A stretch of DNA of 3,142 nt, taken from the IMG/VR virus record IMGVR_UViG_2740892234_000015; one strand, 5' to 3'. Below, one piece after another: positions 1,668-2,726 of this stretch (position 1 is the stretch's first letter; the number at the start of each line of letters is the position of its first letter). The stretch is from a virus (Duplodnaviria > Heunggongvirae > Uroviricota > Caudoviricetes). Position numbers and translations under genes: made by a program. The notes below the pieces were generated by a model that did not search any database, was not told where the DNA came from, and saw nothing but the letters and a program-made list of their open reading frames with translations.

Positions 1668-1802
1668 TCATCCACGGCAGTGGAACCACACGTCAAACAT
1701 TCGTTTCACAACTTCACGGCAGTAGAAGCCGTCGACATCACGGGTCAGGTCGTAGCGATTGCCGAATGTCTTGCGAACCCAGAACTCAAAAGCCGTATGC
1801 AT
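1668..1802 (-). CDS. Hypothetical small protein, 44 aa (MHTAFEFWVRKTFGNRYDLTRDVDGFYCREVVKRMFDVWFHCRG); not in the supplied ORF track
   Basis: I translated this by hand: ATG at 1802-1800, TGA at 1670-1668. GGAGG at 1813-1809 lies 6 nt upstream of the ATG and overlaps the TGA stop (1808-1806) of the upstream 80 aa gene, which suggests translational coupling. It fills the otherwise gene-free interval between the 80 aa gene and xis, on the same strand. No family recognised. Confidence 0.5.
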   Translation of the reverse strand: MHTAFEFWVRKTFGNRYDLTRDVDGFYCREVVKRMFDVWFHCRG

Positions 1803-1805
1803 GTA

Positions 1806-2048
1806 TCACCTCCGTTGCATTGCGCGTAATTTTTTCAGGCGCATTTCCTGCTCAGTGCCCGCCAGAATTTTGCGGTACTCCTGTTGGTCAATATGTTCGA
1901 ACAGGTTGTTGAACTCACCAATGCGTACCCGTCCGGAGCGCCCGTCCATGCGTCGAAAGAACACTGAGTGCTGAGTACTGCGAGTAATCACCACAGGGTA
2001 TCCGGCTCTGTCCGTGTATATCTGACCACGTTGAATCAGAGCGAACAT
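1806..2048 (-). CDS. Hypothetical prophage protein, 80 aa, basic C-terminus
   Basis: ORF from the track (ATG 2048-2046, TGA 1808-1806). Co-directional with the neighbouring genes; its ATG lies 4 nt after the stop of the upstream micro-ORF. C-terminal tail is Arg/Lys-rich (EQEMRLKKLRAMQRR). I cannot place the family; a faint recollection of a small enterobacterial phage DUF is not reliable. Confidence 0.7.
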   Translation of the reverse strand: MFALIQRGQIYTDRAGYPVVITRSTQHSVFFRRMDGRSGRVRIGEFNNLFEHIDQQEYRKILAGTEQEMRLKKLRAMQRR

Positions 2049-2052
2049 TCCT

Positions 2053-2139
2053 TTATCCCCAGCGGAAAAGCGAATACAGAATAAATGCCACCGCTATTGC
2101 AACTCCAACTGCGGTGAATGCTTCAGGCCAATTCATCAT
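2053..2139 (-). CDS. Small hydrophobic single-pass membrane peptide, 27-28 aa (MMNWPEAFTAVGVAIAVAFILYSLFRWG); not in the supplied ORF track
   Basis: I translated this by hand: tandem ATG ATG at 2139-2134, TAA at 2055-2053. The first ATG overlaps the TGA stop of the DUF551 gene (ATGA at 2139-2136). A perfect AGGAGG at 2149-2144 lies 4 nt before the first ATG and 7 nt before the second. The peptide has a roughly 20-residue hydrophobic core (AFTAVGVAIAVAFILYSLF) flanked by Trp residues and a C-terminal Arg, the composition of a single transmembrane helix. Confidence 0.5.
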   Translation of the reverse strand: MMNWPEAFTAVGVAIAVAFILYSLFRWG

Positions 2140-2726
2140 TTCACCTCCTGCGGCGGTTCTGGTAGCTGCATCCAGTGGGTTACCTCTTTGAGATACAGGT
2201 CTTCGCCATCACCGTCATCCCAAGTGGGATTGCCATCATTAAACCAGTCGCCATATACGCCGACCTGAGTGTTGGGGATGTTTGGTGGGTAGTTGTTTTT
2301 AAAGTCAGCTGCTAACACATAGCATTGTCGCTCTCCCATTTCAGGCATTCGCTCACTACAGCTTATCCAACCATCCGGAGTTGCCGGATAGTTGCCATTC
2401 ACAAGGTCAGCTCGAACATATAGCGTGTCATCATGGTGTTGATTGTGGCTGCACCACGTTAATTCGCTTAACTCGCCATCTTCTGGCCATACTCCAGCCG
2501 TTTGCAGCCAGATATGGGCTGGCGCATCTTGGCAAGGTGTATTAACTGGCAACTTGTAAGTTTGGCTTACAGGTTCTGCACTATCAGCCTTGCGGCGCTC
2601 CTGTAGCTCGCGCAGAGCCGCTACAACATAATGGCTATTGTGCTGGTCAGCCCACAGAATGAGCCGAATCAACGTTGCATTTGAAACGTATTCGTCTGTT
2701 AGTTTGCTATTGGTAAAAGTGGTCAT
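2136..2726 (-). CDS. DUF551-domain prophage protein, 196 aa
   Basis: ORF from the track (ATG 2726-2724, TGA 2138-2136); AAGGTG 8 nt upstream of the ATG. The C-terminal part (GWISCSERMPE...CYVLAAD...VTHWMQLPEPP) matches my recollection of the DUF551 signature common in enterobacterial lambdoid prophages. The N-terminal 110 aa or so is unassigned. An acidic Trp-rich stretch (DWFNDGNPTWDDGDGED) precedes the C-terminus. Confidence 0.85.
   Translation of the reverse strand: MTTFTNSKLTDEYVSNATLIRLILWADQHNSHYVVAALRELQERRKADSAEPVSQTYKLPVNTPCQDAPAHIWLQTAGVWPEDGELSELTWCSHNQHHDDTLYVRADLVNGNYPATPDGWISCSERMPEMGERQCYVLAADFKNNYPPNIPNTQVGVYGDWFNDGNPTWDDGDGEDLYLKEVTHWMQLPEPPQEVK

Follow-up and report, generated by a model that had tools for sequence, protein, structure and literature searches.

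The question raised by the interval 1668-2726 of the 3,142-nucleotide (nt) stretch analysed here (the window, from the Caudoviricetes record IMGVR_UViG_2740892234_000015 of IMG/VR) is whether the four small genes packed there, directly upstream of the xis-int recombination module, make up one undescribed system, as was implied in a first-pass annotation made from the letters alone, or a mosaic of unrelated parts. The comparisons here presented point to the latter, the cluster appearing as a mosaic of three independently shuffled cassettes and not as one system. The four open reading frames (ORFs), all on the minus strand and directly upstream of xis-int, were confirmed from the sequence at the coordinates below, given in order of reading:

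2136-2726, minus strand: gene of a 196-amino-acid (aa) acidic mosaic protein with an isoelectric point (pI) of 4.5, hereafter the DUF551 protein (PF04448; phrog_60/924/12449).
2053-2139, minus strand: gene of a predicted single-pass membrane microprotein of 27/28 aa, M(M)NWPEAFTAVGVAIAVAFILYSLFRWG, hereafter the peptide (identified by conservation and by pN/pS, the ratio of nonsynonymous to synonymous differences).
1806-2048, minus strand: gene of an 80-aa basic DUF4222 protein, a distant homologue of RgdR (PF13973).
1668-1802, minus strand: gene of a 44-aa soluble protein of pI 8.8, from a phage-only family (phrog_3871, 1.5e-31).

Co-occurrence was surveyed in 5426 complete E. coli genomes, a block being counted at a coverage of at least 80%, and in IMG/VR loci gathered from two seeds, the 80-aa protein and a set of aligned 44-aa homologues. 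The block formed by the peptide, DUF4222 and 44-aa genes was present in 590 genomes, and the four-gene block including the DUF551 gene in only 23. In the E. coli/Shigella lineage the three smaller genes are a stable linked block, predominantly arranged as peptide, DUF4222, 44 aa, xis; the trio recurs there beside three integrase/excisionase types (100%; 72%/50%; 27% without a detectable xis), as well as with a different or no recognisable DUF551 allele upstream, and an identical trio elsewhere follows, for example, a gene with a dATP/dGTP pyrophosphohydrolase domain.

Genome searches for a conserved block, the check that the first-pass annotation had put forward, found each part without the others in other phages. 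In Phi24B (as vb_24B_1c), ev207 and Klebsiella phage 2b, DUF4222 stands directly before xis while the peptide and the 44-aa gene are both absent, and among 29 species-level DUF4222 loci the other two genes occurred only in 2, both from E. coli/Shigella, being absent from the remaining 27. In a phiP27-like subgroup only the peptide is missing from the trio. Fels-1, Klebsiella P18-100 and Citrobacter phage K1M, in turn, have the 44-aa gene and no DUF4222 gene with it. Megablast comparisons further placed breakpoints inside the genes themselves, at about 1715 (44-aa gene), 1904 (80-aa gene) and 2397 (DUF551 gene). The last of them marks a recombination junction, since VT1-Sakai/YYZ-2008 are 99.4% identical to the window up to 2397 and divergent after it, and it falls between the conserved C-terminal domain of the DUF551 protein and its variable N-terminal modules. 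With a DUF551 gene that is freely exchanged and parts that assort independently, the single-system proposal is left unsupported. Neither did a defence-type reading gain from the searches: PADLOC-DB returned no family at E<=1 for the four proteins and Xis, the NCBIfam scan of all proteins gave no matches, and searches of PDB sequences with the single proteins and with a DUF4222 profile gave chance-level matches only. None of the four displayed homology to housekeeping recombination or replication functions.

The tight packing of the genes, also part of that earlier description, was read directly from the sequence. The stop codon of the DUF551 gene overlaps the peptide start in an ATGA arrangement (...CAG GAG GTG AAA TGA over ATG ATG AAT TGG), 4 nt separate the peptide from the 80-aa gene (...TGG GGA TAA AGGA ATG), and 3 nt the latter from the 44-aa gene (...CGG AGG TGA TAC ATG), while an 18-nt gap containing a GAGG motif precedes xis. 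Shine-Dalgarno-like motifs were recognised for the peptide and the 44-aa gene (GGAGGTG), for xis (GAGG) and, in weaker form, for the 80-aa gene (GGGGA). Neither sigma-70-like promoters nor intrinsic terminators were detected in 1300-2765, shuffled sequence averaging 2.0 and 1.5, respectively, and no Rfam family, including antisense or sok-like RNAs, matched in the window. These two negatives fit read-through expression, and the expectation of a single transcript is compatible with the lack of internal signals. The interval lies between exo and xis on the strand of the pL operon and is the xis-proximal end of the early-left (pL-type) operon, so that the variable accessory region invoked by the first-pass annotation is the published exo-xis region.

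Selection was evaluated as pairwise Nei-Gojobori pN/pS among distinct alleles, and all three short ORFs proved to be under purifying selection in their own frame across diverged alleles, with values of 0.30 for the 80-aa gene and 0.17 for the 44-aa gene. The peptide ORF is a real gene, because its own frame is open in 14 out of 14 nucleotide alleles and displays an in-frame pN/pS of 0.42 (pS 0.51, pN 0.22), versus 1.17 and 1.68 in the other two frames, where stops occur in 14/14 alleles. On the plus strand (window 1640-1974), opposite the 44-aa and 80-aa genes, two antisense ORFs (90 and 71 aa) were also considered and discarded as probable chance ORFs, since among 42 alleles of the module they vary in length or vanish.

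The peptide follows the pattern M-x-W-P-[DE]-A, a variable hydrophobic core, and [SA]-[IL]-[CF]-R-W-G-stop. Nearly all alleles have 27 codons, the window allele having an extra ATG; its true start is probably the second ATG, at window position 2136, with a 27-aa product, because this codon is spaced 5 nt from GGAGGTG and yields the length of the other alleles. Kyte-Doolittle values of up to 2.28 in a 19-residue window predict one transmembrane helix, by which the peptide would insert in the membrane. No similarity was detected for it in Pfam or PHROG, the gene was absent from every RefSeq/GenBank annotation examined, although a few submitters have called it a hypothetical protein, and the literature yielded nothing on its sequence, which is not in the supplements of the Sakai Ribo-seq study either. 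The family is nonetheless present in 1634 of the 5426 genomes (about 30%), at 3110 sites, 163 of them on plasmids, with up to 7 copies per genome. It was also found in 933W, VT2-Sakai, ArgO145, the 120-kb virulent phage Av-05 and plasmids of ~90-100 kb, a size typical of phage-plasmids.

In an IMG/VR sample seeded with the peptide, 114 of 116 pattern matches were intact ORFs of 24-32 codons. An overlapping upstream ORF, its TGA over the peptide ATG, was found at 98 of these 114 sites, with at least three different upstream C-termini (LPEPPQEV.., GLISVEDILR and LKNIEQEVNR); the upstream partner is DUF551-ended in about half, and several partners have Ea22/EaA-like N-termini. Downstream, DUF4222 follows in 31/114 (27%) and is absent from the other 73%, and no ORF at all follows in 61/114. 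Six loci inspected individually (peptide gene at 1501-1584 of each) had the ATGA overlap in 6/6 and lacked an annotation in 6/6. Judged from these neighbourhoods, what the peptide travels with is the 3' end of its upstream early gene, which varies, and not DUF4222. A cluster representative described as a 121-aa 'DUF551' protein had raised the idea of a Rosetta-stone fusion, but the sequences hold no fusion and the grouping was regarded as a clustering artefact. As for what lies further downstream, in ArgO145 and in the O103:H2 strain 12009 a hairpin comes after the peptide gene, with a convergent ParDE-type toxin-antitoxin pair beyond it, and in 933W hokW/sokW come after the peptide gene. Other small membrane proteins of bacteria and phages (regulatory microproteins such as MgrB, AcrZ and SgrT, and type I toxins such as Hok and TisB) are alike in having fewer than 50 aa, one predicted transmembrane helix and a record of being missed by annotation pipelines. 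The peptide differs from them in its ATGA coupling to an upstream phage early gene and in its distinctive conserved ends, WP[DE]A...RWG.

According to the first-pass annotation, none of the four genes has an assigned function, a statement that is incomplete for the 80-aa protein, because it belongs to DUF4222, the family of an experimentally characterised regulator, RgdR. It scores 57.6 bits on PF13973 (cutoff 27; E 9.3e-16; residues 4-54), RgdR (ECs1581) scoring 82 bits, and with a pI of 11.1 it shares the small size, basicity and prophage location of the DUF4222/RgdR family. RgdR, of 99 aa and pI 10.09, activates LEE1 (within LEE, the enterocyte effacement locus) and type III secretion and represses motility (PMC3378721); its DNA binding is independent of sequence, and it increases the binding of Congo red (PMC3378721). 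Within the family, the DNA binding and the effects on LEE1 and motility are known only for RgdR and its close orthologues. RgdR is the founding DUF4222 member and is encoded by OI-51/CP-933C, Sakai Sp7, an element of the phage-inducible chromosomal island (PICI) type.

Both proteins are small, strongly basic, recognised by PF13973 and encoded in the early operon of a prophage or satellite, and they conserve an R-G pair at the start of the domain and an invariant Arg after strand 3. On the contrary, the 80-aa protein lacks the 13-residue N-terminal extension of RgdR, overall identity is only about 20%, and its C-terminal helix carries the motif E-x-E-x-x-L-K-K-L-R-A, typical of the lambdoid branch and unlike RgdR. 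Its gene adjoins xis in a lambdoid phage, whereas that of RgdR precedes the primase in the PICI. The RGD tripeptide from which RgdR takes its name (residues 20-22) is R7-G8-Q9 here; Q9 is nearly invariant in the lambdoid DUF4222 branch, and the Arg, the residue tested by mutagenesis in RgdR, is kept. The C-terminal motif in the form E-T-[AS]-E-H-[IL]-K-K-L-R-A is highly conserved in prophages of Enterobacter, Citrobacter, Klebsiella, Leclercia and Raoultella.

The AlphaFold2 (AF2) model of the 80-aa protein, built on a 60-sequence alignment, reached a predicted local distance difference test (pLDDT) score of 84.9, and predicts that residues 10-42 form a four-to-five-stranded SH3/Tudor-like barrel, followed first by a short helix and then by a long basic one at the C-terminus (55-79). 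Matches of the fold search include nucleic-acid-binding and RNA-polymerase-binding small barrels, with PWWP-ssDNA, ribosomal proteins, TraI, MscS and KOW in the top Foldseek ranks, and a BFVD search with the DUF4222 model gave uncharacterised small barrels only. As modelled, the protein would be a small barrel that binds nucleic acid or protein and bears a basic helix, which would suit the non-specific binding of DNA seen in RgdR, and from this DNA binding and a regulatory role may be expected of it. Regarding its genomic neighbourhood, in most of the species-level DUF4222 loci among those listed (about 15 of 29) the gene lies a gene or two downstream of one for a TraR/DksA-like zinc finger, a DUF1233-type xis follows within about 1 kb in 16/29, and an int with Arm-DNA-bind_2 in 18/29, which suggests a conserved regional scaffold.

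The DUF551 protein scores 72.7 bits on PF04448 (cutoff 22), and is laid out as an N-terminal helical region of Ea22/EaA-like character, a conserved middle block and the C-terminal DUF551 domain (residues 119-193). More than 7270 relatives were found. Pfam Ead_Ea22 (PF13935) gave no match at E<=1 for the protein of the window, yet some relatives, 75-86% identical over part of the length, carry a PF13935 N-terminus, so that its relation to Ea22 is one of mosaic sharing and not of family membership. YfdS of the cryptic prophage CPS-53 and the Ea22 variant V2 of Shiga toxin (Stx) phages have in common with it the C-terminal DUF551 domain, an acidic character and the mosaic behaviour of a 'portable domain', and differ in their N-terminal and middle modules. 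The only phenotype reported for the DUF551 family is the H2O2 sensitivity of a yfdS mutant, which is not mechanistic.

The 44-aa protein, which has no Pfam match, contains W8, W39, C28 and C42, and its family shares the invariant core RYDLTRD..G.Y.RE.V.RM...W..CR. A zinc-binding reading was rejected, only C42 being invariant and the cysteines not being conserved as a set. A single-sequence search among 1.84 billion representative proteins returned 20 clusters; the 18 confident matches have 32-98 aa, two longer proteins matching weakly and partially, and as all confident matches are short no informative fusions are available. The gene is usually the last before xis, and the role of its product could relate to this habitual place.

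Taking these observations together, we consider it reasonably probable that the four serve as accessory genes of the delayed-early class, reached by read-through from pL, with a DUF4222 product that acts as an RgdR-like modulator, a peptide located in the inner membrane and a 44-aa protein beside xis. Transcription would proceed by read-through from an upstream pL-type promoter, and each gene would be translated from its own Shine-Dalgarno site with stop/start coupling. A first cassette would comprise the DUF551 mosaic gene and the 27-aa microprotein, whose ATG lies over the upstream stop, the peptide being made together with its upstream partner and inserted in the inner membrane. In the second, the RgdR-like DUF4222 protein would bind DNA with low specificity and shift host, and possibly prophage, transcription in early lytic development, while the third would consist of the 44-aa soluble protein directly before xis. 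Several points weigh against this account. Pairwise identity to RgdR is 37% over 27 aa (E 0.009) and the RGD reads RGQ, so that the functional transfer from RgdR is weak; the model of the 80-aa protein has no Foldseek match at E<0.001, its matches being generic small barrels, and the AF2 model of the DUF551 protein is unusable (pLDDT 37.9, 41-sequence alignment). The tight conserved spacing of the trio in 590 genomes could also reflect functional coupling and not linkage alone.

This last point leads to the rival by which the peptide, DUF4222 and 44-aa proteins, with or without the DUF551 protein, would be one co-functional system with membrane and nucleic-acid-binding components, devoted for example to superinfection exclusion, anti-defence or host takeover. 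The identical order and 3-4-nt spacing kept across alleles ~14-50% divergent in protein and across three integrase types, the presence of the trio as a block in a known accessory hotspot, and the purifying selection on all three genes would suit it. It is nevertheless judged unlikely, considering that (i) each part is found without the others in other phages, (ii) the trio has no PADLOC or NCBIfam match and no promoter or terminator of its own, and (iii) the peptide is coupled to the upstream and not to the downstream gene in every context inspected. The DUF4222 protein might also act through a protein target instead of DNA, either by CarD/UvrD-CTD-like Tudor docking on the beta lobe of RNA polymerase or as an antagonist of H-NS, with global transcription changes as a result; loss of hns derepresses LEE and curli and abolishes motility. 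Such a mode of action we regard as quite unlikely.

Two further alternatives concern the peptide. One makes it the toxin in a toxin-antitoxin or abortive-infection module whose antidote would be an antisense RNA or a gene nearby; this is brought to mind by its size and hydrophobicity, like those of type I toxins, by its position ~150-230 bp upstream of the sokW/mokW/hokW module in 933W, and by the ParDE-type module beside it in ArgO145 and O103 strain 12009. On the contrary, its translational coupling to an upstream early gene, the lack of a promoter and leader of its own and of any antisense RNA family in the window, its frequent position with only a hairpin or non-coding DNA after it and no partner beside it (61/114) and the tolerance of up to 7 copies per genome all speak against a type I module, and polar ends conserved as in this peptide (WP[DE]A, RWG) are not known from Hok, Ldr, Ibs and TisB, which makes a toxin very improbable. 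The notion that the 27/28-codon ORF is a mere translated spacer, providing coupling or a Shine-Dalgarno site for the downstream gene, agrees with the purine run in its last codons (TGG GGA TAA), which is the Shine-Dalgarno site of the 80-aa gene, and with its being left unannotated by the Prokaryotic Genome Annotation Pipeline (PGAP) in the records examined; it is hard to reconcile with a pN/pS of 0.42 versus values above 1 in the other frames, with terminal residues conserved around a variable hydrophobic core, and with the same ORF ending in RWG* being kept where no gene follows, and we give it very little credence.

Beyond the preferred reading as delayed-early accessory genes, a bolder one can be formulated, which is speculative and rather unlikely. 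The peptide would represent a new and very widespread family of phage membrane microproteins (WP[DE]A...RWG), including members in virulent Vequintavirinae, made stoichiometrically with early proteins of Ea22/EaA/DUF551 type through ATGA coupling and directed to a target in the host inner membrane; separately, DUF4222/RgdR proteins would be Tudor-like global transcription modulators directed at the RNA polymerase lobe or H-NS. If this were true, such Tudor-like modulators would provide a mechanism for the LEE and motility effects of RgdR.

The remaining features of the window are the following:

75-1361, minus strand: int, a tyrosine integrase with an Arm-DNA-bind_2 N-terminal domain (PF12167, PF00589).
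1395-1649, minus strand: xis, an excisionase of DUF1233/xisR type (PF06806, 2e-29; phrog_539).
2729-2765, minus strand: 3' end of the operon gene that comes next upstream, which in complete genomes encodes a 63-aa hypothetical protein and is truncated here by the scaffold gap.
2766-2775, no strand: run of 10 N, a scaffold join between the prophage and an unrelated chromosomal contig.

Window 1-2765 is the integrase end of a lambdoid prophage, identical by megablast (100%) to E. coli 2013C-3264 (NZ_CP027544) and 96.6% identical to phage BP-4795. In NZ_CP027544 the truncated 63-aa gene is complete (CDS, or coding sequence, 9729-9920 of the locus, equivalent to window 2729-2920). The gene order there and in BP-4795 is a co-directional minus-strand array that begins on the N side with a partial regulator fragment and continues with genes for a 156-aa hypothetical protein and DUF2528, cIII, kil, gam, bet, exo, DUF1317 (orf60a), DUF1382 (orf63), an orf61-like gene, TraR/DksA-like, ea22-like and the 63-aa gene, ending in DUF551, the (unannotated) peptide, DUF4222, 44 aa, xis and int; all genes from the four-gene interval up to cIII, and the regulator fragment, are thus on the same strand. 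Past the ten N (window 2766-3142) lies ypeC (DUF2502), a core gene present in 5425/5426 genomes and situated elsewhere in the chromosome, so that the gap is a scaffold join without biological meaning as a boundary; the window is a scaffold chimera, in which the cluster and the genes past the gap are not true neighbours.

The prophage is of the BP-4795/VT1-Sakai lambdoid type, most likely integrated near the 5' end of mlrA (yehV), a gene that adjoins it in the complete genome NZ_CP027544. Window 1-54 (minus strand) falls within a CDS annotated as mlrA (yehV) and reads IGLPLIPVTLRAWQRRYG; its match to MlrA would start only at ...PVTLRAWQRRYG, which would place the prophage near the 5' end of mlrA, a curli/biofilm regulator gene, with its first codons replaced. 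This insertion site is known for Stx1-type phages.

The exo-xis genes of lambda and Phi24B resemble those of the window in their position from exo to xis, the pL strand and their neighbours (ea22-like, TraR/DksA-like, DUF1382 and DUF1317), and are also small, non-essential and highly mosaic. In Phi24B the corresponding place beside xis is taken by a DUF4222 homologue, vb_24B_1c, on which a literature search found nothing. On the contrary, the xis-proximal orf55 and ea8.5 of lambda are unrelated in sequence to the window genes, and orf55, considered as a counterpart for its place beside xis, was discarded as unrelated to the 80-aa and 44-aa proteins; the peptide and the 44-aa gene are absent from the lambda/Phi24B sets in the published descriptions consulted. 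Public annotation already included the region itself, the 44-aa ORF and both the DUF551 and the DUF4222 family, as hypothetical proteins, and exo-xis biology and RgdR are published. Three results are new here: that the cluster is a mosaic and not a system; that a branch lying beside xis in lambdoid phages, with a predicted barrel-plus-helix fold, belongs to the RgdR family; and that a membrane microprotein gene, widespread and for the most part unannotated, is coupled to the stops of varied upstream early genes, often DUF551-ended.

A caution follows for similar loci: in the exo-xis region, tight packing and lack of known function stem from the architecture of the operon and from mosaic recombination, and a discrete system is not necessarily behind them. 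With the peptide, small-protein studies gain a concrete candidate and prophage annotation is corrected. The block is carried by Stx-type prophages of enterohaemorrhagic and Shiga toxin-producing E. coli (EHEC/STEC) lineages (O157 Sp15/CP-933V type, O145:H28 and O26:H11), and its lambdoid branch of the RgdR family, placed next to xis, could link prophage induction to host transcription, including that of LEE and motility genes.

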